NCBI GenBank assembly: GCA_020428795.1
Contig: JAGQME010000001.1
Span: 24,178-88,177 of the forward strand
Reading direction: 5' to 3'
DNA: 64,000 nt
Source of the DNA: Candidatus Kaiserbacteria bacterium
Lineage (GTDB): Bacteria; Patescibacteriota; Minisyncoccia; Phycocordibacterales; UBA918
Position 1 is the stretch's first letter. Every line of letters begins with the position of its first letter. Both the position numbers and the translations under genes were made by a program. This document shows, piece by piece, positions 896 to 39,848 of the stretch. The notes under the pieces are model-generated. The model saw only the letters and a list, made by a program, of their open reading frames with translations. It did no database searches and was not told the DNA's origin.

Positions 896-1075
896 TTGGC
901 AAGTTTTTAAATTAGTCCTTTGGCGTAGATAGCGCCTAGTCCCTGTAGTAACCTGCGAAGGTTGTTACTACTATAGCACATTTTCTGACTTTTGCAAGTT
1001 ACACCGTAGATTTTGTTTTTGTCAAAAAGCCGATGGTTTCTGTTTTGCTATACTATATATGACGTACATATATAT

Positions 1076-1993
1076 ATGAATCTTACTCAACTCAAACGCC
1101 AATTCTTGGAATATCTTGAAATCGAACGGGGTCGGGCAGTTAAGACGGTAGAAAATTATGATCGCTATCTGACAAAATTCTTTGAATATGCCAAAACCGA
1201 TGATCCAAAAAAAATAACCGAAGATATGGTACGTGAGTTTAGGTTGTATCTTAATCGTCAGCCAGGTACCAAAGTCGGTAGTCGAATAGATCCAATGAAA
1301 AGACGCACCCAAAATTATTATCTAATCGCTCTAAGGGCTTTTCTAAAATATATTAGAAAAAGAGGGGTCACTTCACTTTCGCCGGAGGTAATAGAGTTGG
1401 CTAAGGTGCCAGAGCGATCATTGGATTTAATTACTCCCCAAGAACTCGATAGGTTGATGAAAGCGCCCGACACCAAAACTCCGCAAGGTTTGCGTGACCG
1501 AGCTATTTTGGAACTACTTTTCTCTACTGGACTTCGTATTTCTGAACTATGTGCTCTATCGATTGATGATGTTGATTTGAGTCGAGATGAATTTTCGGTT
1601 CGGGGAAAGGGTGATAAGGTGCGAGTGGTTTTTTTATCTGATTCAGCCAAAGAAGCTATTAGTCTTTACCTAAAAGCTCGTAAAGATATGGATGAAGCAC
1701 TTTTTATTCAATATGGAAAACGAGCTGATAAAGCTAAGGACAGACGTCTGTCTACCAGAGCGGTCCAGCGTACTCTAAAGTCGGCAGCTATTAAGGCTGG
1801 TATCACTCGCAAGGTATCACCTCATGTTATTCGCCATAGCTTTGCTACCGACTTACTAAGTAACGGGGCTGATTTGCGTTCGGTTCAAGCTCTCTTGGGT
1901 CACGCTAACATTGGTACCACTCAGATTTATACTCATGTGACAGACAAACACTTGCGTGACGTTCATAAGAAATATCACAGCCGGGGTGGGTGA
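1076..1993 (+). CDS. xerD: Tyrosine site-specific recombinase, XerC/XerD family
   Basis: Core-binding N-domain followed by catalytic motifs ...RHSFATDLL... and LLGHANIGTTQIYTHV (catalytic Tyr). ORF-track start at 1013 is probably an N-terminal over-extension; MNLTQLKRQFLEYLE at 1076 is the more likely start. Confidence 0.88.
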   Translation: MNLTQLKRQFLEYLEIERGRAVKTVENYDRYLTKFFEYAKTDDPKKITEDMVREFRLYLNRQPGTKVGSRIDPMKRRTQNYYLIALRAFLKYIRKRGVTSLSPEVIELAKVPERSLDLITPQELDRLMKAPDTKTPQGLRDRAILELLFSTGLRISELCALSIDDVDLSRDEFSVRGKGDKVRVVFLSDSAKEAISLYLKARKDMDEALFIQYGKRADKAKDRRLSTRAVQRTLKSAAIKAGITRKVSPHVIRHSFATDLLSNGADLRSVQALLGHANIGTTQIYTHVTDKHLRDVHKKYHSRGG

Positions 1994-12174: not shown

Positions 12175-12246
12175 GCGCCTGTAGTGAAATGGATATCACA
12201 ACTGACTTCGGATCAGTTATTCTGGGTTCGAGTCCTGGCAGGCGCA
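12175..12246 (+). tRNA. tRNA-Arg (anticodon TCG), CCA not encoded
   Basis: GCGCCTGTAGTGAAATGGATATCACAACTGACTTCGGATCAGTTATTCTGGGTTCGAGTCCTGGCAGGCGCA. Acceptor GCGCCTG/CAGGCGC; D-stem GTGA/TCAC; anticodon stem ACTGA/TCAGT with loop CTTCGGA; T-loop TTCGAGT. Confidence 0.8.
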
Positions 12247-12295
12247 CAATATTAAATCCCCCTTTTAAAAGGGGGATTTAATATTGTGCGCCTGC
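12238..12295. terminator. About 25-bp perfect palindrome that incorporates the 3' acceptor strand of tRNA-Arg
   Basis: GCAGGCGCACAATATTAAATCCCCC-TTTTAAAA-GGGGGATTTAATATTGTGCGCCTGC; the left arm begins inside the tRNA, and the core is the same AAATCCCCC/GGGGGATTT motif as the hairpin at 10588. Confidence 0.6.
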
Positions 12296-12383
12296 GAAAA
12301 AGTCTGGGAGGCTGTTTTGATAGGACTAGACAAGGTGTATCGAAACTGTACCGAGTGTTATTTAACAATGTATAATAATATTA

Positions 12384-12703: not shown

Positions 12704-14515
12704 TTAGGACACCAAATTTTTTGACCAAGCTTTTACAATATTTTGTATGTTGGCGATCCAGTCGTCAGAATTATTAACTTCACCAATACTATCAACAATT
12801 TTATCTATTAAGATCTTTAGGTTATTGTGGTTAAACTGCTTGTTCTCTTCTCGCAGTTGTTTGAGTGTTTTTAATAATTCAATAAATTGCTTGATGGTGA
12901 GAGGGGCGATTTTTTGCTTTTGGCCTTTATAACCAACGGTATTCGCAATATAAAAAGTCTCAGCACTGTCAGTGTGAATTGTAGGGGCTAAGAAGACACA
13001 ACGGGCATTATCGTGCTTGTTTTCAAAATCACGTAAGTGTCGCATGACGGGTTGTCCCTCATTAAACCATTGGTCACGGCCGTTTAACATTGTGACCTCA
13101 CAGATCATATTAAAGCTATTGTAGAAACATTCAATGTCAGCCAAGCCACCTGGTGCGGTTGAAGTTGGTTGATTGTCGTCACCGACTGGGTAATTTGGTT
13201 TGATTTCTTTTGCGTCGTTTAGGGCGTACAGTCCCATTGTTGTTAGGTATTCAAGCATTAAGGCTCGATTTTCTAGTTCAAATATTTTTTCTAGTTGCTC
13301 GATGTAATCAGTAATTGATGAAATTGGTTGTGATTTGAGACGATTATTTTTTTCTTGTAAATCTTTACGTATCAAGCGTAAATTACTGATATGTAACGCT
13401 AGATCATCTTCAGTCATGGCGGATATAGCCGGCTGTTCATCAACTGTTAAACCAAGTTCGCTTTGCAATTCGATTACATTTTGATAGAGAGTATTGGCAA
13501 TTTCCGACAATTTATCTTTAGTATGCCAAGGTAAAATAGGTTGATTATCATCAGATAGATAGGTTAAATAAGCTTTTTTATCTACAAATTGTTTGGGTTT
13601 ATAGAATTCACTTTCAAATAAAGCTTCAATCTCAGTGTGTCGATTAGGTTCTAGGTCAATGTAGAAGCCATTACCTCGAATACGAACAAAACTGGTTAGA
13701 CGAAAGTATCTAATCGCATTATCACCGTAATCTTGCAGGTTTGTAATGAGTTTATTAATTTTTGCTTGATTACCAGTTCCTAAGAAATTAGTAATGAATT
13801 GTTTACGATATTTATCACGTATTTTTTTGCGTTCGGATTTCGTCTTGCCATTTTGTAGGTTGCGTAATTCGATTATTTTTCTTGCGTAGGACTCAATATC
13901 AGTATATTTAACCAAAGATGGTACAAAGAGTGAAAATTCCCCCTTGCTAATCCCCTTCGCCTTCTGTCCTTGTTCCATCTCCAATCTATTGACGGTGCTG
14001 ATTAGCTTTAAAGTAGCCACAAAAGGCACAGTCCCGTAATTACCATCGTTAGTAAATTCATTACTAGCTGGATTAGGTATTTGCCATTTAATAAATGATT
14101 TTAAGAACACTTCACCGGTGTTTTGGTCATCTTTGATCAGTTTTTTACCCAGCTCGGTTATCTTTAAAATTCCGTTATCAATAATCACAAAGCCAAACTT
14201 AGTGAGCGGGTTTAACGATTGGCGACCCCGCATCGAAAAGTCGGTGTAATTTTTTAATCTGAGAATCCTATCAATCGTTTCGTCATTAATTTCTAAGTCG
14301 GTGTCATTTATATTATTGATGATGTCCGGAGTTAATCCATTATAAAATTGCGTGTTGCCAAAGCCATAAAGTCTGTTTTTTATCAAAAGTTTCTGATAAT
14401 TGGCTTGATTAGCCTTATCCCAAGGCTTATTTTCAAGTAATTTAGTCACCACCAAAAAATCACGGAGACGTTCTGGGTTTCTGACCGTTGTTGTGATAGA
14501 CCAAGCTTTTAGCAT
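12704..14515 (-). CDS. Type IIS restriction (or nicking) endonuclease, AlwI / N.BstNBI / PleI / MlyI family
   Basis: 603 aa. Segments NPLTKFGFVIIDNGILKITELGKKLIKDDQNTGEVFLKSFIKWQIPNP, AIRYFRLTSFVRIRGNGFYIDL and MLNGRDQWFNEGQPVMRHL...CVFLAPTI match the conserved blocks of the RE_AlwI family as I recall them for N.BstNBI. Adjacent to a two-domain methyltransferase. Confidence 0.72.
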   Translation of the reverse strand: MLKAWSITTTVRNPERLRDFLVVTKLLENKPWDKANQANYQKLLIKNRLYGFGNTQFYNGLTPDIINNINDTDLEINDETIDRILRLKNYTDFSMRGRQSLNPLTKFGFVIIDNGILKITELGKKLIKDDQNTGEVFLKSFIKWQIPNPASNEFTNDGNYGTVPFVATLKLISTVNRLEMEQGQKAKGISKGEFSLFVPSLVKYTDIESYARKIIELRNLQNGKTKSERKKIRDKYRKQFITNFLGTGNQAKINKLITNLQDYGDNAIRYFRLTSFVRIRGNGFYIDLEPNRHTEIEALFESEFYKPKQFVDKKAYLTYLSDDNQPILPWHTKDKLSEIANTLYQNVIELQSELGLTVDEQPAISAMTEDDLALHISNLRLIRKDLQEKNNRLKSQPISSITDYIEQLEKIFELENRALMLEYLTTMGLYALNDAKEIKPNYPVGDDNQPTSTAPGGLADIECFYNSFNMICEVTMLNGRDQWFNEGQPVMRHLRDFENKHDNARCVFLAPTIHTDSAETFYIANTVGYKGQKQKIAPLTIKQFIELLKTLKQLREENKQFNHNNLKILIDKIVDSIGEVNNSDDWIANIQNIVKAWSKNLVS

Positions 14516-14536
14516 GGTCTGATTATGGCATAAAAG

Positions 14537-16525
14537 CTAATAATTAGTAATAAGTACCTCTACGGTCTTGTTATTTTTAGCGCTGGAGTGATAGTTGGAA
14601 TTTTTGTAATGATAATCCAATTTATGGACTTGGTAATTATGTTCTTTGGCCCATTTCTTTATTATTTTGTTAACATCGCCTTTATGTTCTAAGACGTTTG
14701 ATAGAGCAAATCTTACCTTTTTCTCGTCCAGTCTAGTCAAAAGTGAATAAAGATCCTTCTCATCCTTTTCAGTCCAGCCCCCCATTTCATTATAGCTAGC
14801 TAGACCCAATAGATAAGGTGGATCTAGGTATACAAAATCATCTTTATCCAACTTAATAGTTTCAATATCACGAAAATCTCCATTTTTAAAGGTTATTGTC
14901 TTTTCATTTGATATTTGGTTAAAAGCCGCTACGTTTTTTCTAGAACTGCCATTGTAGTCTCGTTTACCGACTGGCAGATTAAAATCACCGCTCGAATTAA
15001 ATCTTATTTGGTTATTAAAGGCGTATAAAACCAGCACTAACAGTAAATCAATCTGAGTTTTGTCTTGATTAAACTCATTACGGAGTTTTAGAAAAGCTTT
15101 TTTATTGTATTTTCCTAAACCTACTGAGCTATCAGCTTTATAGTGGTCGTAACCTTTGATATAGCTCTGACTTAAGTTAAAACGCTGAATGATATTAATT
15201 ATTTTCTGGTTCAGATCTTCAAAATTGTTGTTTTGAATCAATTTTAACAAGTTAACAACGTTATGATTTTTTTCGACACAGACTATATTTTGGGCTGTGG
15301 CATTAATACCAACGTTTGCACCACCGGAAAACACATCATAAAAAGTCTTAATGTCATCGGGAAAGAATTTTGTGATTTGCGGTAGAAGTTTGTGTTTACC
15401 ACCGGTGTAATTTAACGGCGATTTAACAAAACCACTTTGGACAGGGTTGTTTCTTGAAGCCATTATTTTCCGGCTTGAATTTGAAGAGACATTTACTTTG
15501 CACAAAAATATACGTTCCTTCAGATCATCTTTATTGGATTTACCGGTGGTAAATTGTCTAAAGTTAGTTTCAAAAACCTTTGTCTCTCCTCGTCTTTTTA
15601 AGGCTGATAGTATTTCATGGTCACTAATTCTCGACTGTGATCTCACATTTCCAGCTGTACCCATATCGTTATAAGAAACAAGAATGTATTTAGCTTTGAT
15701 GTTATCTATCAAATCACCAAAAGCAACCCCGGCCGATTTCATGTTGTATTTACTTTTGATGTGCGAACGGTCCATTTTTTTAGCAACTCCAAAAACCGCC
15801 CCTTTTTTCCAGGTAGCAATATTTTCTAGTAAATGATAAGCATCGGAATACTGTCTCGAATTATACGGTGGATCAATATAAACAATGTCGGCTTCTATTT
15901 TTTTTACCAATTCATTAGCGTCTTCTTTGTATATTTCAGTTAGACGAGTAGATTTTTTTAGTTCTAGAGGCAATAGAAAAAGCTTCTTTTCGGGAATGTC
16001 TATTTTTCTATAGGCGTCATAATGACCAACAGTGTTAGCGATTTTATCTAAGGCGTAAATTAACGATGTTATTAGATAGGCTTTCTCTCGGTAAGTGATT
16101 ACCTTTTTTTTAAATAATCCTTCAATATCGTCCCTAATAAAGCCTATTTTCTTAGCGTTTTCAGCGTCAAAATAAGTGTTAGAGAAGTTTTTAGAGAAGT
16201 AATTTTCTGGGTATTTTTGGGCTATTATATTGTTATAATACTTTAGTTTTTCTCTTAATTTTTTTTCTTGTATTTTGTCTTTACCAAAAAAAGCGGTGTA
16301 TACATAAGAATTTGAGTCCAAAATATCGTTTACGATAATTTTAGATTGATCATAAAAGTGATTGGCCACGGTACCGGTACCGGCAAAAATATCAGCAAAT
16401 GAATCAAATTTTATGTTTTCATCTCTTATTATTTTGTCTATAAAAGATAGAAGTTTGGTTTTAGAACCAAGATAGCGTCTCTGGGCCAGGTTAACCTTTT
16501 TATTTCCAAAATAGGCATCTTGCAT
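14537..16525 (-). CDS. Fused two-domain N6-adenine DNA methyltransferase (two Dam/D12-class modules), type IIS modification enzyme
   Basis: 662 aa with two copies of motif I + motif IV: FADIFAGTGTV ... VYIDPPYNSRQY and FYDVFSGGANVG ... VYLDPPYLLGLASY. Tandem MTase modules are typical for asymmetric type IIS sites. Confidence 0.85.
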   Translation of the reverse strand: MQDAYFGNKKVNLAQRRYLGSKTKLLSFIDKIIRDENIKFDSFADIFAGTGTVANHFYDQSKIIVNDILDSNSYVYTAFFGKDKIQEKKLREKLKYYNNIIAQKYPENYFSKNFSNTYFDAENAKKIGFIRDDIEGLFKKKVITYREKAYLITSLIYALDKIANTVGHYDAYRKIDIPEKKLFLLPLELKKSTRLTEIYKEDANELVKKIEADIVYIDPPYNSRQYSDAYHLLENIATWKKGAVFGVAKKMDRSHIKSKYNMKSAGVAFGDLIDNIKAKYILVSYNDMGTAGNVRSQSRISDHEILSALKRRGETKVFETNFRQFTTGKSNKDDLKERIFLCKVNVSSNSSRKIMASRNNPVQSGFVKSPLNYTGGKHKLLPQITKFFPDDIKTFYDVFSGGANVGINATAQNIVCVEKNHNVVNLLKLIQNNNFEDLNQKIINIIQRFNLSQSYIKGYDHYKADSSVGLGKYNKKAFLKLRNEFNQDKTQIDLLLVLVLYAFNNQIRFNSSGDFNLPVGKRDYNGSSRKNVAAFNQISNEKTITFKNGDFRDIETIKLDKDDFVYLDPPYLLGLASYNEMGGWTEKDEKDLYSLLTRLDEKKVRFALSNVLEHKGDVNKIIKKWAKEHNYQVHKLDYHYKNSNYHSSAKNNKTVEVLITNY

Positions 16526-17377: not shown

Positions 17378-17448
17378 GCGGCCATGGTTAAGTGGTATAA
17401 TGAGTCCTTGCCAAGGATTAGTCGGGAGTTCGATTCTCCCTGGCCGCA
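17378..17448 (+). tRNA. tRNA-Gly (anticodon GCC), CCA not encoded
   Basis: GCGGCCATGGTTAAGTGGTATAATGAGTCCTTGCCAAGGATTAGTCGGGAGTTCGATTCTCCCTGGCCGCA. Acceptor GCGGCCA/TGGCCGC; anticodon stem AGTCC/GGATT with loop TTGCCAA; T-arm GGGAG-TTCGATT-CTCCC. Confidence 0.88.
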
Positions 17449-17451
17449 CAA

Positions 17452-17480
17452 AGAAAAAAGACCTCCAAGGGTCTTTTTTT
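17452..17480 (+). terminator. Intrinsic terminator directly after tRNA-Gly
   Basis: AAAAAAGACCTCCAAGGGTCTTTTTTT. Confidence 0.55.
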
Positions 17481-17600
17481 GACTGTGGCCAGGGGCGTAG
17501 CTTTGTGCATACAAAGCGTTGCGCAGAATCGAAAAGCTTTTGTGATACTTTTGAGCTTTACAGCGAAAAAGTATCCAAAAGGTGTACAGAATCTGTAAGA

Positions 17601-17621
17601 TTCGATTCTCCCTGGCCGCAC
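17601..17621 (+). repeat. 21-nt perfect direct repeat of the 3' end of tRNA-Gly(GCC), T-loop through discriminator
   Basis: TTCGATTCTCCCTGGCCGCAC is identical to the tRNA 3' end. Upstream segments TGTGGCCAGGGG (17485-17496) and GAATCGAA (17526-17533) are complementary to it. Confidence 0.85.
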
Positions 17622-17777: not shown

Positions 17778-18422
17778 TTATTTAAAATTTATGAACACTA
17801 AAAATATAGCTATGCTAAAGGCTATATACTCGGTTATTGAAACCCAGTTAAGGCGTAGGTAATATTTTTCAATCCAATCTTCTATACCAAAACGGTTAAT
17901 ATAATCTGACAACTCTGCTTCCGACCAAGAGACTATAATTCGAAGCCTCTTCTCACTATCAGGTAAATTCTCCCAAAGACCTCTTTCTATCAATATTGAT
18001 TTTAGTAAATTCGCTCGTCTGCCAAGTAGTTTGTAACGTCTCTTGGTAATTGGCCACAGTAGCGGTATTCCCCATCCGGTGCCATAAAAATCATTGAAGA
18101 AATGTAGTAAAACAGCTATCAAAAACAACCAGCCCCAAAACGGTGCTAGGTAGATAAAAATAATACCTGCCAAAATAAATATTACCGGATAATGGAGGGC
18201 TTCTCTGTGGTCGTGGTTGTGTCCGGCTGAGGCGGCTACCCGACCTCTTTTTAATAGCTCTGGTAGGGCATCGAGGTCTGGGGACATGGCAAAGATAATT
18301 CCCACTATAAAATGCCAAGAGGGTTCAATTCCTACTATCAGCCCAGCTAAGATTGTAGCTAGTAAACCGTTAGCAACATCAGCAAGTAACGCTAGGACAT
18401 TTTTGATTTTCTTCATAGACAT
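17778..18422 (-). CDS. Membrane-bound metal-dependent hydrolase (DUF457/YdjM-like)
   Basis: 214 aa, multiple TM helices, H-rich motifs (HNHDHREALH; HFFNDF..GTGWGIPLLWP) as in YdjM family inner-membrane proteins. Confidence 0.45.
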   Translation of the reverse strand: MSMKKIKNVLALLADVANGLLATILAGLIVGIEPSWHFIVGIIFAMSPDLDALPELLKRGRVAASAGHNHDHREALHYPVIFILAGIIFIYLAPFWGWLFLIAVLLHFFNDFYGTGWGIPLLWPITKRRYKLLGRRANLLKSILIERGLWENLPDSEKRLRIIVSWSEAELSDYINRFGIEDWIEKYYLRLNWVSITEYIAFSIAIFLVFINFK

Positions 18423-21292: not shown

Positions 21293-21363
21293 CGGGGTGT
21301 AGCATAGTGGTAGTGTACGCGGTTTGGGACCGTGTGGTCCGGGTTCGATTCCCGGCTCCCCGA
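21293..21363 (+). tRNA. tRNA-Pro (anticodon TGG), CCA not encoded; acceptor stem has one T-T mismatch and the D-stem is short
   Basis: CGGGGTGTAGCATAGTGGTAGTGTACGCGGTTTGGGACCGTGTGGTCCGGGTTCGATTCCCGGCTCCCCGA. Anticodon stem CGCGG/CCGTG with loop TTTGGGA; T-arm CCGGG-TTCGATT-CCCGG. Imperfect acceptor and D arms lower confidence. Confidence 0.7.
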
Positions 21364-21364
21364 C

Positions 21365-21406
21365 AAATTATAATACCCACAGGATTTCCTGTGGGTATTA
21401 TAATTT
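21365..21406 (+). terminator. Perfect 19-bp-stem hairpin directly after tRNA-Pro
   Basis: AAATTATAATACCCACAGGA-TTT-CCTGTGGGTATTATAATTT. Confidence 0.65.
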
Positions 21407-21492
21407 TCGCTAGGGAATCGAAGCCCGATTGAGCTATTTTGAGAACGAAGTGAATCAAAATAGCCAATTGGGATACTGTTCGTGTTGCGAAA

Positions 21493-21513
21493 GATTCCCG
21501 GCTCCCCGACAAA
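21493..21513 (+). repeat. 21-nt perfect direct repeat of the 3' end of tRNA-Pro, T-loop through trailer
   Basis: GATTCCCGGCTCCCCGACAAA is identical to 21343-21363 plus 3 trailer nt. Upstream GGGAATCGAAGCCCGA (21413-21428) is an inverted, slightly mutated copy of the T-arm. Confidence 0.85.
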
Positions 21514-21600
21514 AAATAAGACAAATACAATAAGATCTTCTTTCTTAGAAAGGTTTTTATTATATCGTTGTACTAATGGTGGTGATATAATGGCCGTATT

Positions 21601-27411: not shown

Positions 27412-27453
27412 GAAAACGGACCGAGTTTCCTGAAGGAAACTCGGTCCGTTTTC
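27412..27453. terminator. Perfect 19-bp-stem hairpin after the GATase gene
   Basis: GAAAACGGACCGAGTTTCC-TGAA-GGAAACTCGGTCCGTTTTC; preceded by another hairpin GTTTTCAG...CTGAAAAC at 27388-27418. Confidence 0.6.
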
Positions 27454-30710: not shown

Positions 30711-30854
30711 AAAGTCGGTGATTATAGAACTATAGCAGAGTTTTGTTTGAATTTATTATGATAGGATACTAATTTATAAGTTAGTTAATATTACTTGACT
30801 AAATATATACTAAACTATAATATAGTATATATTGAATAATCAATGTAAACTAAC

Positions 30855-31991
30855 ATGATAAATATTAATATCTGTAAAAAAGTCTCACAACCAACTGGAT
30901 ATATAGCGTCAATACCAGAAACTTTTCCTAATAAGGACCTTTTTAATGTACCACCAAATATTTTATTTAAGGCGGTAGAAGCAGAAAGATTGATTGGTAA
31001 GTTGGACGGTATCACCTTAACTCTTCCGGACATAAATTTTTTCCTCAGAATGTTTTCATATAAAGATGCTACCTCTTCAGCTCAAATAGAAGGCACACAA
31101 GCAACTATGGCTGAGGCTTTGGCTGTAGAAGCAGAGATAGAAAATGATAAAACCGATGCCTCTGATATTATTTTCTATATAAAAGCTTTAGAGTACGGAA
31201 TTGAAAGACTTAAAGAATTTCCAATATCACTTCGGTTCATTCGTGAGATCCATGCCAAACTTATGGATGGTGCTAGGTCAACTCATTTTGCTGATCCTGG
31301 AGAATTTAGAAAAAGTCAGAATTGGATTGGAGGCACAAACTTAAGTAATGCTACTTTTGTTCCTGTACCTCATACCGAAATGAACTTATGTTTAGGTGAT
31401 TTAGAAAAATTTCTTTATGATGACGCCGCCACTCTACCACTAATTTCTATTGCTTACGCTCATGCACAATTTGAAACCATTCACCCTTTTTTGGATGGTA
31501 ACGGTCGGGTGGGTAGACTTCTGATAACTTTTCTCCTTATGAAAAAAGGAGTGTTGGAAAAACCGGTGTTATTTTTATCTTCTTATTTTAATAAATACAA
31601 AAAGATTTATTACGATAAACTCAGTGGATATCATGACGATGGAGATGTTTTTGGATGGGTAGATTTTTTTCTAGACGGTGTTATTGAGACAGCGAATGAA
31701 GCTATTAAGATTTCAGGTGAAATAAGACAAATTAGGGACAGAGATATGGCTAAGATACAAAGTTTATCAAAACGTGAATCAGATAGTGGGGTAAAGGTTC
31801 TTAATTATTTGTTTGAAAATCCAATTATTACTACAAAAAGTATTATGAACATTACGGGCTTTACTCGAGCTGGTGCTCAGGGTGTAATAGATCGTTTTGT
31901 TGGACTGGGCATCTTGGTGGAAGAAAATAAGGAAAGTAATTACGATGTAAAGTATACGTACGAAGAATACTTTATGGCGTTTGTAAGATAA
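30855..31991 (+). CDS. Fic/DOC family protein with C-terminal winged-helix domain
   Basis: Fic motif HPFLDGNGRVGRLLITFLL (HPFx[DE]GNGR); 378 aa. Confidence 0.9.
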   Translation: MININICKKVSQPTGYIASIPETFPNKDLFNVPPNILFKAVEAERLIGKLDGITLTLPDINFFLRMFSYKDATSSAQIEGTQATMAEALAVEAEIENDKTDASDIIFYIKALEYGIERLKEFPISLRFIREIHAKLMDGARSTHFADPGEFRKSQNWIGGTNLSNATFVPVPHTEMNLCLGDLEKFLYDDAATLPLISIAYAHAQFETIHPFLDGNGRVGRLLITFLLMKKGVLEKPVLFLSSYFNKYKKIYYDKLSGYHDDGDVFGWVDFFLDGVIETANEAIKISGEIRQIRDRDMAKIQSLSKRESDSGVKVLNYLFENPIITTKSIMNITGFTRAGAQGVIDRFVGLGILVEENKESNYDVKYTYEEYFMAFVR

Positions 31992-32178
31992 AAAACAAAA
32001 CCAACTCTTGGAACAATCGAAAAAATTACTCATGCTCTTGGAGCTGAGATTAAAGATCTTATTGTAGCATTTCAAGGGAGTGCGGGTGAAGTCCGGCACG
32101 GTGGTTTTGCTTAAAATAATCCCGTTTAACGGCGAGGTTGTCTTACTCTGAGTTTATTTCAAAACACGAAGTTGCAAA

Positions 32179-32200
32179 TTGTGCGGGTGAGAAGAATCGA
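32179..32200 (-). repeat. 22-nt perfect direct repeat of the 3' end of tRNA-Gly(TCC), T-loop through trailer
   Basis: Plus-strand TTGTGCGGGTGAGAAGAATCGA is identical to 32394-32415. Plus-strand TTCGATTCTTC at 32309-32319 is the inverted partial copy. Confidence 0.85.
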
Positions 32201-32395
32201 TTACCTTCGCATTAGTATATTCATCGGCTAACGCCTCGAATATACTGTGCTACGCAACCCCGACGCTCGAATCGACCTCGCTTCGCTTTGGTCGATATAC
32301 TCGCTCTTTTCGATTCTTCACGTGAGCAAAAACGTTTGCTTATTTCACCCTCCCAACCAAAAACGGGCGCACTTTCGTACGCTCATTTTTGTTTG

Positions 32396-32466
32396 TGCGG
32401 GTGAGAAGAATCGAACTCCCGACTACTGCTTGGAAGGCAGTCGTTTTACCACTAAACTACACCCGC
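32396..32466 (-). tRNA. tRNA-Gly (anticodon TCC), CCA not encoded
   Basis: Reverse complement GCGGGTGTAGTTTAGTGGTAAAACGACTGCCTTCCAAGCAGTAGTCGGGAGTTCGATTCTTCTCACCCGCA. Acceptor GCGGGTG/CACCCGC; D-stem GTTT/AAAC; anticodon stem ACTGC/GCAGT with loop CTTCCAA; T-stem has two G-U pairs. Confidence 0.8.
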
Positions 32467-34745: not shown

Positions 34746-34762
34746 AAATTGGGGTGTCTAAT

Positions 34763-34809
34763 AAAAAACGTTAAAGGCGCCTCCATCGGAGGCGCCTTTA
34801 ACGTTTTTT
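34763..34809. terminator. Bidirectional intrinsic terminator (21-bp perfect stem) after rny
   Basis: AAAAACGTTAAAGGCGCCTCC-ATC-GGAGGCGCCTTTAACGTTTTT. Confidence 0.65.
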
Positions 34810-34815
34810 ATTAGA

Positions 34816-36345
34816 CTACCTAGCGTAACTTACCACTCTCGTCTCACGTATCACGTGTACCTTGATCTCACCCGGATATCTTAACTGAGCTTCAATGGTG
34901 GTAGCGATCGTCCTAGCCAGACCGCTGGCCTCAAAATCGTTGAGGGTCTCTGGGTTAACAATGACTCTGATCTCTCGACCAGCTGAGATAGCAAAGGCCT
35001 TATCGACTCCAGCTAAACTGGTAGCGATGGCTTCTAGTTCACTCAAACGCTTGATGTAATTTTCAAGTGAATCACGTCTAGCGCCAGGTCTAGAGCCAGA
35101 CAGTGAATCAGCCACCTGAACAATAATTGATTCCGGAGTTTCGTAGGGATATTCTTCATGATGGGCCCGCATGGCCAATATTACTCTTTCATCGACATCG
35201 TATTTTTGTAGAATTCTGATACCAATTTCTACGTGTGTACCAGCTACTTCATGACTAACAGTTTTGCCGATATCATGTAAGAGGGCTCCTGCTCTGGCTA
35301 CTGCCACGTCAGCCCCGACTTCTTCAGCGATTATAGCTGCCATATGGGCCATCTCAACGGAATGCCAAAGAACATTTTGGCCATAACTGGTACGAAAATG
35401 TAGCCGACCAAGAATGGTTAATAGGTCCGGGTGTAGGTTTGGCACATTGGCATCATAAGCAGCTTTTTCACCCATTTTACGCACGGTACCGGCTACTTCT
35501 TTTCTGGCTGCTTCGACACACTCTTCAATTTTGGCTGGCTGAATACGCCCGTCTTTCATTAGGGCCTCAAGCGCCACCCTAGCTATTTCTCGTCTGATTG
35601 GATCAAAAGAAGAAAGGGTAATGTATCCAGGAGTGTCGTCTATTAACACATCCACTCCAGTCATTCTTTCAAAGGTGCGAACATTACGGCCTTCTTTTCC
35701 AATTACCTTACCCTTCATTTCTTCGTTGGGTAGCTCTACATTGGCCGTCATTATATTGGTCGGCATGTTGTTTCCCAGACGATGAAGGGTCGCTAAAAGA
35801 ATATTCTGAGCCTTAGCTTCATATATTTCCTCACCAGCTAGGGTCATTTTACGGATTCTTTCCTCTAAATCACCGGCTCTTTCTACCTCCATTTTAGCCA
35901 CTACTTGTTCAAAGGCTTCTTCTTTGCTTAGAGAAGCGATTTCCTCAAGCTTGTTGTCTAGCTCGTCCTTGCGTTCATCTAGACGTACCTTTAAGGTTTT
36001 TATTTCTTCTATTTTGCTTCGCACAGCTTCTTTTTCAGAGTCTAGACTGATTTGACGTTCATCAAGAAGCTCCTCCTTCTTTTCCAAGCGGTCTTCTTTG
36101 TGTTTTATTTTTTCTTCTTTTTCTTTAAACTCCGCTTTTGCTTCCGTCTCTATTTTATCGGCTTTGGCCTCCGCTTTTTCCACTATCTTAAATGCCTGTT
36201 CTTCGGCTTTTAGCATCTTTTCTTTTAGGTCTATTTCAACCGATGCTTTTTGTCCAAGGGCGTGTAGGTATCGTAGGTAGTAACCAGAAGCTATGCCGAT
36301 TATGAGCGCTGCCAAGGCAATGCCCAAAATAATCAAGGTTGGCAT
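34816..36345 (-). CDS. rny: Ribonuclease Y
   Basis: N-terminal TM helix, coiled-coil, KH domain (VIGKEGRNVRTFE), HD domain (LLHDIGK ... HHE), C-terminal ...IRETRVVSYAR. Confidence 0.9.
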   Translation of the reverse strand: MPTLIILGIALAALIIGIASGYYLRYLHALGQKASVEIDLKEKMLKAEEQAFKIVEKAEAKADKIETEAKAEFKEKEEKIKHKEDRLEKKEELLDERQISLDSEKEAVRSKIEEIKTLKVRLDERKDELDNKLEEIASLSKEEAFEQVVAKMEVERAGDLEERIRKMTLAGEEIYEAKAQNILLATLHRLGNNMPTNIMTANVELPNEEMKGKVIGKEGRNVRTFERMTGVDVLIDDTPGYITLSSFDPIRREIARVALEALMKDGRIQPAKIEECVEAARKEVAGTVRKMGEKAAYDANVPNLHPDLLTILGRLHFRTSYGQNVLWHSVEMAHMAAIIAEEVGADVAVARAGALLHDIGKTVSHEVAGTHVEIGIRILQKYDVDERVILAMRAHHEEYPYETPESIIVQVADSLSGSRPGARRDSLENYIKRLSELEAIATSLAGVDKAFAISAGREIRVIVNPETLNDFEASGLARTIATTIEAQLRYPGEIKVHVIRETRVVSYAR

Positions 36346-37100: not shown

Positions 37101-37165
37101 AATTTATATTCCTATTATTATTCGTGACTGACAGCGTTTATCCTAACAGAAAGTTAAACGGTTGA

Positions 37166-37210
37166 AAACAAAACGGTCGCACGGCAAAGCCGTGCGACCG
37201 TTTTGTTTTT
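37166..37210. terminator. Intrinsic terminator after tig (about 20-bp perfect stem)
   Basis: AAAACAAAACGGTCGCACGG-CAAA-GCCGTGCGACCGTTTTGTTTT. Confidence 0.65.
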
Positions 37211-39784: not shown

Positions 39785-39848
39785 AACCCCACCAAAAACA
39801 CCAAGCGGTATCCCGATCGGGATACCGCTTGGTGTTTTTGGTGGGGTT
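39785..39848. terminator. 30-bp perfect-stem palindrome after the pyrophosphatase gene
   Basis: AACCCCACCAAAAACACCAAGCGGTATCCCGATCGGGATACCGCTTGGTGTTTTTGGTGGGGTT. Confidence 0.6.

Follow-up and report, generated by a model that had tools for sequence, protein, structure and literature searches.

The 64,000-nucleotide (nt) window analysed here, which belongs to contig JAGQME010000001.1 of a Candidatus Kaiserbacteria assembly (GCA_020428795.1), harbors a short non-coding element behind its minus-strand tRNA-Gly(TCC) gene; we refer to this element as module C. The reading that we favor, with rather more confidence than doubt, is that module C belongs to a family of miniature (~150–350 bp), protein-less insertion cassettes that is spread across the Patescibacteria and situated at tRNA 3′ ends. 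The family is apparently undescribed so far, as no match in Rfam or in the literature was obtained. The observations from which this reading proceeds are the anatomy of the module, its membership in a family, the specificity of its arms for the local tRNA, the boundaries of its repeats, a strand-specific and covarying structure, and the gain or loss of a unit that runs exactly from repeat to repeat.

Read in the direction of the tRNA, module C and its immediate surroundings are made up of the following parts. S denotes the repeated 3′ segment of the tRNA, h a terminator-like hairpin, S′ an inverted copy of S (with an acceptor part, S′A, and a T-stem/T-loop part, S′T), and P2, P4 and P5 are hairpins.

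32395–32466 (start 32395 or 32396), minus strand: the host gene, tRNA-Gly(TCC) (ARAGORN; Rfam tRNA, 72.6 bits).
32393–32414, minus strand: proximal S (TCGATTCTTCTCACCCGCACAA), from T-loop nucleotide 2 to the tRNA 3′ end plus 2–3 trailer nt (exact 22-nt repeat).
32355–32394, minus strand: h, an A-tract, a hairpin with a GAAA loop and a T-tract; it resembles an intrinsic terminator and abuts the tRNA (terminator scan match at 32382–32367; fold).
32345–32354, minus strand: S′A (GGGAGGGTGA), which imperfectly complements the 3′ acceptor strand of S (sequence; it pairs with distal S in the minimum-free-energy fold).
32325–32341, minus strand: P2 (AAGCAAA-CGTT-TTTGCT), which splits the inverted copy (sequence and fold; of the same kind as the P2 of the family).
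32309–32319, minus strand: S′T (GAAGAATCGAA), the complement of the T-stem 3′ strand and the T-loop, followed by the conserved junction AAAG (sequence).
32201–32308, minus strand: UNIT, with the 3′ junction GG-TAA (fold z −5.3; homology to locus L067).
32265–32304, minus strand: P4 of UNIT, a hairpin with tandem G.A (sequence and fold).
32204–32259, minus strand: P5 of UNIT, a long hairpin (sequence and fold).
32179–32200, minus strand: distal S, which repeats the 3′ segment of the tRNA perfectly and in direct orientation (exact repeat).
32080–32089, minus strand: a third, truncated copy of the tRNA 3′ end (TCACCCGCAC, the last 10 nt), at the edge of extra DNA that bears a Fic gene (exact match; synteny with locus L001).

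The 22-mer TTGTGCGGGTGAGAAGAATCGA occurs exactly twice in the window, at 32179–32200 and 32393–32414, with a start-to-start distance of 214 nt. No further copy with up to three mismatches is found in the window, and 100 shuffles gave 0 matches. The last 10 nt of the tRNA are present in three exact copies, all in the same orientation. Between the two full repeats lie 192 nt of DNA without an open reading frame (ORF). A preliminary description of this DNA, made from its sequence, had reported the minus-strand tRNA, the perfect distal copy ~195 nt past its end, a small hairpin at 32324–32341 (AGCAAA/TTTGCT) and a short inverted repeat in the spacer (TCGAATCGACC/GGTCGAT, a stem at 32268–32296). 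All of these were recovered, ARAGORN and Rfam agreeing on the tRNA. The same description noted an inverted copy of the T-loop. This copy is indeed present, but it does not comprise the T-loop alone, because S′A adds the acceptor strand; the inverted copy is complementary to nearly all of the 3′ segment, with an interruption by the hairpin P2. The inclusion of the acceptor strand and the lineage-wide family described below are both new with respect to that earlier account.

This arrangement conforms to a common plan. In the direction of the tRNA, the order is tRNA[..S]–h–S′–UNIT–S. S spans the final ~20 nt of the tRNA, beginning in the T-loop, and 0–4 nt beyond the 3′ end, and h (A-tract, hairpin, T-tract) scans as an intrinsic terminator. 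S′ is usually divided by P2, the loops of which are conserved in the family (AACUGCUU, CUGGGAG), into its acceptor and T-stem/T-loop parts. UNIT consists of a junction (GAARAG), the variable hairpin P4 with tandem G.A at its base, a second junction (GUACA) and a short hairpin, P5, with a UGUAA loop. GAARAG, GUACA and UGUAA are exact across ~95 species, whereas the interior of P4 varies freely. In the predicted fold, distal S pairs with S′ and closes the core as a three-way junction, the closing helix of which mirrors the acceptor/T-stem helix of the tRNA. When compared with shuffled sequences, the folds had z-scores of −5.3 (module C), −9.5 (module A) and −9.4 (module B), the latter two being the sister modules introduced next.

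The window (G+C 39.5%) contains five tRNA genes according to ARAGORN and Rfam, and four modules: those behind tRNA-Gly(GCC) (A), tRNA-Pro(TGG) (B) and tRNA-Gly(TCC) (C), and a decayed one after tRNA-Arg(TCG). Its CorA protein matches an NCBI protein of Candidatus Kaiserbacteria at 100% identity.

17378–17621, plus strand: module A after tRNA-Gly(GCC) (covariance model, 76 bits; identical in two other assemblies).
Parts of module A, plus strand: tRNA 17378–17449, h 17450–17480, S′A 17485–17495, P2 17496–17523, S′T 17524–17533, P4 17536–17582, P5 17589–17603, distal S 17601–17621.
21293–21510, plus strand: module B after tRNA-Pro(TGG) (a 146-bp unit is missing from four other assemblies).
Parts of module B, plus strand: tRNA 21293–21364, h 21365–21406, S′T 21413–21422, P4 21424–21472, P5 21479–21491, distal S 21493–21510.
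12175–12355, plus strand: tRNA-Arg(TCG) and its decayed module (read by eye against the family).

The preliminary description had also pointed to two further modules, and both exist, at tRNA-Gly(GCC) and tRNA-Pro(TGG). The repeat of module A is a perfect 21 nt (17429–17449 and 17601–17621), and that of module B extends over 30 nt at 90% identity (21347–21376 and 21493–21522). Modules A and C have the 11-mer GAATCGAAAAG in common, as had been proposed. The contention that three co-linear modules reflect neither chance nor artefact is sustained by their single architecture, by their strong folds and by the homologues that each core has in other genomes. A plain MAFFT alignment of the three spacers, an approach put forward at the outset, was uninformative; homology surfaced only by way of other genomes. 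Besides the tRNA-derived parts, the spacers hold this common architecture and cores that are homologous through those genomes (A via 112 loci, B via L116 and L077, C via L067). In the module after tRNA-Arg(TCG) (12238–12355), S, h and S′A form a perfect palindrome (12238–12295), followed by a P2-like hairpin (12296–12319) and by a decayed S′T with remnants of the junction and P5 (12322–12355); no distal S is present in it.

We scanned for the family with an exact 19-mer from the core of module A (CAGAATCTGTAAGATTCGA), using one genome per species. This search yielded 112 loci in 97 assemblies, with 121 instances of the core. All of the loci but two are labelled as Patescibacteria (Paceibacteria, Parcubacteria, Kaiser-, Nomura- and Zambryskibacteria, and others); of the two exceptions, one is a chance match and the other is probably a mis-binned contig. 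ARAGORN placed a co-oriented tRNA 70–230 nt upstream in 76 of the 121 instances and an opposite-strand tRNA in none, and most of the others were judged by eye to be cut by the ends of the loci. The tRNAs ahead of the cores have 36 different anticodons, and a genome may have several copies. S and S′ match the local tRNA, including its two variable T-loop positions (AATCGAA/TTCGATT, ATTCGAA/TTCGAAT, ACTCGAA/TTCGAGT and AGTCGAA/TTCGACT). Distal S is 100% identical to the tRNA in ~26 of the 76 instances and variably decayed in the rest. The subfamilies differ by a mini-hairpin or a ~55-nt hairpin within distal S, by a longer 5′ domain (the “long type”) and in the sequence of P5.

Modules B and C are tied to this family by separate matches. 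Module B was the top non-training match (18.1 bits, E 0.014) of a covariance model, R1, for which 28 short-type cores were used, and its core also matches L116 and L077 in blastn. The core of module C aligns with L067:1911–2034 (75% over 126 nt, E 2e-18, blastn), which sits behind a tRNA-Gly(GCC) and has arms that fit that tRNA. Module C itself escapes model R1, in which only a single subfamily is represented. Module C has a co-oriented tRNA, direct and inverted copies of S, a P4/P5 core and a homologue behind another tRNA, i.e., every feature by which the family is recognized. From the matches of modules B and C, we therefore conclude, on the basis of sequence comparison, that all three full modules of the window are members of one superfamily.

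The boundaries of the repeats were studied in all tRNAs of the fetched loci and of the window, a copy being defined as the last 14 nt of the tRNA, with one mismatch allowed, within 450 nt. A downstream copy was present for 54 of 163 tRNAs, and for 18 of 80 among the tRNAs unlinked to the selecting 19-mer; upstream copies were found for 0 of 173. The left end of the identity falls within the T-loop (offset −1 to +6 from the first T) in all 13 of the modules without the 19-mer, and the right end lies 0–4 nt beyond the tRNA end in 34 of 40. The direct duplication is 15–43 nt long and bounded by landmarks of the tRNA. No added CCA was found in the distal copies, and in some cases the repeat extends into the flank (module B, +12 nt; L013, +10 nt; L108, +22 nt). 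We therefore conclude that the DNA of the gene, and not the mature tRNA, was duplicated. A reading of the direct repeat as similar to an attachment (att) site agrees with its extent from the T-loop to the tRNA end and with the exact one-unit difference observed at module B.

That difference was found in four assemblies from four samples (L117, ERZ27309210; L118, ERZ28655704; L119, ERZ27309208; L120, SRR6747736), in which tRNA-Pro is without module B. Their CorA proteins are 100% identical to that of the window, and the flanks are identical except for one single-nucleotide polymorphism (SNP). The absence takes the form of one clean 146-bp gap, exactly one repeat-to-repeat unit. Repeat collapse is unlikely, because the k used in assembly (141) is far longer than the repeat. 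The junction strings at tRNA-Pro are GGGTTC-S-AAAAAATAAGAC for the empty site and GCGAAA-S-AAATTATAAT for a hypothetical circle or tandem; a metagenome scan for the core–S junction of module B gave no match. The empty site retains the flank that is located after distal S in the window, and the S copy and h therefore belong to the inserted DNA, as in Campbell-type integration. We infer that proximal S and h are cassette-borne, which for module B follows from this retained flank.

In the same populations, module A is present and identical (two other assemblies). The start of module C is present with four SNPs (L128 and L129), and no empty module C allele was observed there. L128 and L129 are independent assemblies, and the contigs of both stop within hairpin P2 of module C, at the equivalent of window position ~32335. 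They differ from the window by 4 SNPs in the 60 nt of h and S′A, as against 1 SNP in the 460 nt upstream, and one of the changes brings the terminator palindrome nearer to perfection. This pattern suggests that module C is heterogeneous within the L128/L129 population. Contigs that were reached via the PDT and HU proteins end before spanning the module.

Signs of turnover are also seen in other genomes. The syntenic relatives L001–L003, with CorA ~70% identical, have orthologous tRNAs with full, truncated, vestigial or no modules. In L002, tRNA-Arg(TCG) is followed by a full module, the core of which is 72% identical to that of module A over 159 nt and the inverted copy of which fits the Arg tRNA. 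Behind tRNA-Gly(GCC), L001 has a 3′-truncated copy of module A and L002 a vestige only, and decay at orthologous tRNAs extends to the Arg module of the window. Empty sites are found at tRNA-Pro in L001–L003 and at tRNA-Gly(TCC) in L001. ARAGORN calls no tRNA-Gly(TCC) in the syntenic loci of L002 or L003; L002 does contain, at 18010–18079, a decayed tRNA-Gly(TCC)-like copy with a broken T-stem, uncalled by ARAGORN, that has a complete module behind it. Tandem arrays at one tRNA, with identical or different core subtypes, occur in L009, L011, L024, L108, L116 and L077. In the L116 array, the only one checked, the outermost S differs from the middle copy by two mismatches. The two long-type cores that L100 has behind tRNA-Met and tRNA-Asp share 98.5% identity across 200 nt, while their h, P2, S′ and S differ.

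The structure of the modules is strand-specific. In 90 of 105 instances, the tRNA-sense strand reaches a lower folding energy than the antisense strand (mean −48.5 vs. −43.6 kcal/mol; Wilcoxon p 1e-14). G-U pairs number 345 in the sense and 196 in the antisense folds, and GNRA tetraloops 31 and 7, respectively, with the caveat that the GNRA bonus of the energy model favors such loops. In a 28-sequence alignment, the proposed helices are 89.8% paired, compared with 79.6% in shuffles, and double-change cells number 68 vs. 24.9; when the partners are slid, 16–44% of the cells are paired. Covariation is seen in helices P3 and P4, and a T-loop/anti-T-loop pair covaries family-wide. The P5 stem covaries between subfamilies (GAATC/GATTC, GGTCC/GGACC, CTCC/GGAG) while its UGUAA loop is kept. 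At L002:18010–18250, S′ has kept its complementarity to distal S despite the decay of the proximal tRNA copy. These signals show that the sense strand is under selection for a fold in single-stranded form; they favor RNA and are also compatible with folded single-stranded DNA.

How might such a cassette act? It would join the gene within S, between the T-loop and the 3′ end, bringing its own S and terminator h. After insertion, the tRNA would be complete and terminated, and the original 3′ end would be displaced downstream as distal S. The logic would be that of tRNA-integrating genomic islands, without an integrase and at 1/100 of the size. S′ may cap the displaced 3′ end in read-through transcripts, preventing the real tRNA from misfolding onto distal S; in addition or instead, pairing of S′ with distal S may close the core into a cis-acting fold that is recognized for mobilization. 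Movement would presumably be catalyzed in trans. One candidate is a tyrosine recombinase of the host that acts on a single strand in folded form, in the manner of CTX phage and integron cassettes; another is homologous recombination following the uptake of DNA, with the tRNA and S as arms, and a route via cDNA (complementary DNA) is also conceivable. The arms could possibly be matched to a new tRNA by gene conversion from the adjacent tRNA together with hairpin-templated correction. We entertain more tentatively, and with clearly less conviction than the cassette reading itself, a bolder version of it: these would be protein-less mobile elements that home to tRNA genes via a folded single strand (RNA or DNA) and carry a replacement 3′ end, a terminator, an antisense cap and arms re-templated from the landing tRNA, and one core lineage would have colonized most tRNA genes of a bacterial class.

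Several points weigh against the cassette reading. No mobilizing enzyme was identified, and no excised or circular form was seen. Related cores with matching arms stand behind 36 kinds of tRNA; a cassette that carries S cannot simply change its tRNA, and the re-tailoring that this entails is unexplained. The 146-bp difference at module B fits a precise deletion between repeats equally well, gain not having been directly observed. The 121 instances were chosen by one exact 19-mer, which biases estimates of conservation, and the partners in P3 were picked by complementarity, which inflates the score of that helix. Terminator h lies upstream of the core, such that transcription of the core needs read-through. 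Finally, the exactness of the 19-mer over ~95 species and the G-U and GNRA signals fit a host-useful RNA equally well.

A host-useful RNA is the main rival, and it is compatible with a mobile origin. According to this explanation, which we regard as rather unlikely, the module would be a host-functional, tRNA-linked structured RNA that is read through from the tRNA promoter and cut by RNase P or RNase Z at its tRNA-like closing helix. It would take part in tRNA processing, regulate the tRNA 3′ end (by acting as a decoy or in antisense) or bind a protein; the duplications would be the way in which the domain is built, and presence or absence would reflect dispensability at each locus. The strand-specific structure with its sense-strand G-U pairs and GNRA loops, the covarying helices, and the junction and loop sequences that stay exact across ~95 species while the interior of P4 varies all accord with such a function. 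So do the mirroring of the acceptor/T-stem of the neighboring tRNA by the S′:S helix, the conserved P2 loops, the complementarity of S′ to distal S where the tRNA decays, and an orientation relative to the tRNA that never changes. However, module B is missing from near-identical strains, the orthologous tRNAs of syntenic relatives range from full modules to none, distal S is decayed in many copies, tandem arrays of different cores occur at one tRNA, and a strong terminator precedes the core. Moreover, any complementary pair would close the fold, and function alone leaves the identity of the arms with the tRNA unexplained.

A second alternative, which we consider improbable, attributes the modules to errors in the replication of palindromic terminators: a template switch would carry the hairpin on into the tRNA end, slippage would duplicate S, and the immobile product would have its core spread by gene conversion. 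At many loci, S, h and S′ do form one continuous palindrome (the tRNA-Arg module of the window, with 29-nt arms; L010, L038 and L108), the genome is rich in long perfect palindromic terminators, and TCGA of the T-loop is self-complementary and could be a switch-back point. Yet replication error explains neither the conserved, covarying foreign core of 60–250 nt behind 36 types of tRNA in 97 assemblies, nor the identical 200-nt cores of L100 with their different arms, nor the clean 146-bp indel. The least credible alternative, in which large islands or prophages with an integrase entered at each tRNA and, after almost complete deletion, left the modules behind as independent scars, draws on the extent of the direct repeat, which is classical for tRNA-integrating elements, and on the extra DNA beside module C relative to L001 (Fic gene at 30855–31991, an ORF fragment and the third tRNA-end copy at 32080–32089), but it is largely refuted by the single architecture and the homologous cores of the spacers in the window and across 97 assemblies (the preliminary description had named spacers with nothing in common beyond the tRNA segments as what would speak for scars), by tightly clustered sizes, by the lack of integrase remnants and by the absence of the 19-mer from 2.9 million viral contigs.

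Searches for an enzyme that might move the cassettes gave the following results. Within 3.5 kb of 117 instances, there is no recurrent neighbor of the integrase, transposase or reverse transcriptase type, and clustering of the ORFs there returned housekeeping genes only. Among the ~60 larger ORFs of the window that were scanned against Pfam, there is no reverse transcriptase or transposase. The window does encode one recombinase:

1013–1993, plus strand: an Xer-type tyrosine recombinase, the sole recombinase gene of the window (Pfam Phage_integrase, 3e-49, and SAM_1; syntenic in L002).

This gene sits 16–31 kb from the three full modules and ~10 kb from the decayed Arg module. We consider its product a candidate trans-acting enzyme only. 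The suggestion that the modules might share a binding consensus for an integrase or Xer was not substantiated, as none could be shown. The window also has DNA-uptake genes (ComEC, type IV pilus), RecJ and an RNase H-like gene.

Known RNA families and published work were also consulted. In an Rfam 15 search of the whole window at gathering thresholds, only tRNAs pass. A permissive search (E up to 10) with module A and one long-type module returned noise only, with no YrlA, tRNA or ribozyme match. Self-cleaving ribozymes (hammerhead, hairpin, twister, hatchet, pistol, HDV-like) had no Rfam match, and by eye the junctions do not fit hammerhead or hairpin cores. Also by eye, a box C/D-like guide was considered and dropped. 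A retroviral-type primer-binding site was set aside because there is no CCA complement unless the gene encodes CCA, an invertible switch because the orientation never varies, and IS200/IS605-type ends because the target is duplicated. Self-primed reverse transcription of a terminated pre-tRNA was abandoned, as the observed order of parts needs extra assumptions. The literature searched, including a full-text motif search, yielded nothing on these modules. Keywords led only to a 2025 preprint (10.1101/2025.07.03.662931) on group I introns that interrupt tRNAs of Patescibacteria at position 35/36; that phenomenon is different, because the modules lie outside an intact tRNA.

The family is closest to tRNA-targeting integrative elements and to MITE-like repeats (MITE, miniature inverted-repeat transposable element), but it has the defining features of neither. 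The tRNA-integrating elements are reportedly served by tyrosine integrases, with the anticodon loop or the T-loop as the sublocation of their target. With tRNA-integrating islands, prophages and integrative and conjugative elements, the modules share a repeat that runs from a T-loop crossover to the tRNA 3′ end, an insert that supplies the replacement 3′ end, tandem arrays, and empty and occupied alleles that are one repeat-to-repeat unit apart (module B). Unlike those elements, the modules are only 150–350 bp long, have no integrase or other gene inside, and contain the att segment in inverted form as well as a structured core that is conserved; a single family of cores serves dozens of different tRNAs.

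The cis-mobilizable elements (CIMEs) and the MITE-like repeats (ERIC, Correia, RUP, REPIN) resemble the modules in being small, non-coding, multi-copy and non-autonomous, with long RNA hairpins, a transcribed intergenic location and presence/absence polymorphism. However, the terminal inverted repeats of MITEs are the same in every copy, whereas the S′ and S arms of the modules copy the local tRNA and differ from locus to locus; the target duplication of MITEs is short and fixed, whereas that of the modules is 15–43 nt long. No parent transposon was found among the genes near the instances. CIMEs, in turn, are kilobase-sized deletion derivatives without a conserved fold.

CTX-phage attP(+) (acted on by XerCD) and integron attC (acted on by IntI) offer another parallel: a direct copy, a body, an inverted copy, a structured loop and a direct copy, with structure on one strand, cassette arrays and no recombinase in the unit. 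The S′:S stem with P2 as a side hairpin and the core as its loop bears a resemblance, and nothing beyond resemblance, to attC. The target of the modules differs in being a tRNA gene end, not dif or attI, and their arms are 20–40 nt long and tRNA-specific; in addition, their G-U and GNRA signals suggest folding as RNA, and a link to a recombinase is hypothetical. Visual inspection of the stem ends across the listed instances, with no motif search dedicated to the purpose, revealed no attC R″/R′ cores (RYYYAAC ... GTTRRRY), and there is no integron integrase among the neighbors of the instances. Finally, in tRNA-like elements (mascRNA, the tRNA-like structures of plant viruses, bacterial YrlA), as in the modules, the closing helix is an acceptor/T-stem stack and a side hairpin stands where the D and anticodon arms would emerge. 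By contrast, the modules lack a free NCCA end, since pairing involves both the discriminator and the nucleotide after it; a large junction replaces the T-loop, and the helix copies the neighboring tRNA and is not one fixed mimic.

Several other features of the window and of related loci merit description. The window has ~1.5 kb of extra DNA (30711–32178) between the NUDIX gene and module C, the order in L001 being trypsin-like protease, NUDIX, tRNA-Gly(TCC). This DNA contains a Fic/Doc-family gene (30855–31991), a 40-codon ORF fragment (31986–32112) and the third tRNA-end copy. We read the ORF fragment as the C-terminal half of an XRE-type helix-turn-helix regulator, for which Pfam gave no confirmation. 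The extra DNA may be the remnant of an older, larger insertion at tRNA-Gly(TCC). Exact-protein look-ups for the Fic and NUDIX proteins returned no identical record.

The 58-bp perfect palindrome at 12238–12295 (29-nt arms, no spacer) begins within tRNA-Arg(TCG), takes in its last 10 nt and doubles as a terminator. More long perfect palindromes lie between genes at 39785–39848 (32-nt arms), 34756–34816, 37165–37209 and 27412–27453. Between tRNA-Arg and the helix-turn-helix gene upstream of tRNA-Gly(GCC), positions 12704–16525 encode an AlwI-type restriction endonuclease and a fused D12-class adenine methyltransferase. This pair, which has no counterpart among the called genes of the syntenic loci L001–L003, is probably a mobile restriction-modification insertion.

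Other arrangements of tRNA copies were encountered as well. On the minus strand of L067 (4378–4620), a tRNA-Pro has a second copy of its own first ~35 nt ahead of it and, behind it, a P2-like hairpin (loop CTGGGAG) and then a 33-nt 3′ copy that starts in the variable loop, with no core between them. Partial duplication of a tRNA thus takes another form here, within the same lineage. Modules behind tRNA-Ile(TAT) are found in L033, L074 and L104. In L033 and L074, the direct copy of the tRNA runs from the anticodon loop to the 5′ strand of the T-stem and the core occupies the position of the T-loop, an arrangement that looks like a 3′-half pseudo-tRNA with an interruption in the T-loop. In their acceptor parts, the distal copies resemble one another more than they do the resident tRNAs, and the distal copy in L074 is unable to pair with the 5′ end of the resident tRNA.

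Patescibacteria have tiny genomes with little room for selfish DNA; yet 54 of the 163 sampled tRNAs carry cassettes, in loci that were picked for carrying one. Whichever reading is correct, annotation is affected: the modules give rise to pseudo-tRNA ends and broken assemblies, and they are markers of strain-level variation. The conserved three-way-junction core is a candidate for a new RNA family. If the modules are functional RNAs, they would constitute a lineage-specific layer of tRNA processing or control. If they are mobile, they would represent an element that parasitizes essential genes harmlessly while encoding nothing, and the agent that moves them could reveal a new route of tRNA-targeting recombination or retro-homing.

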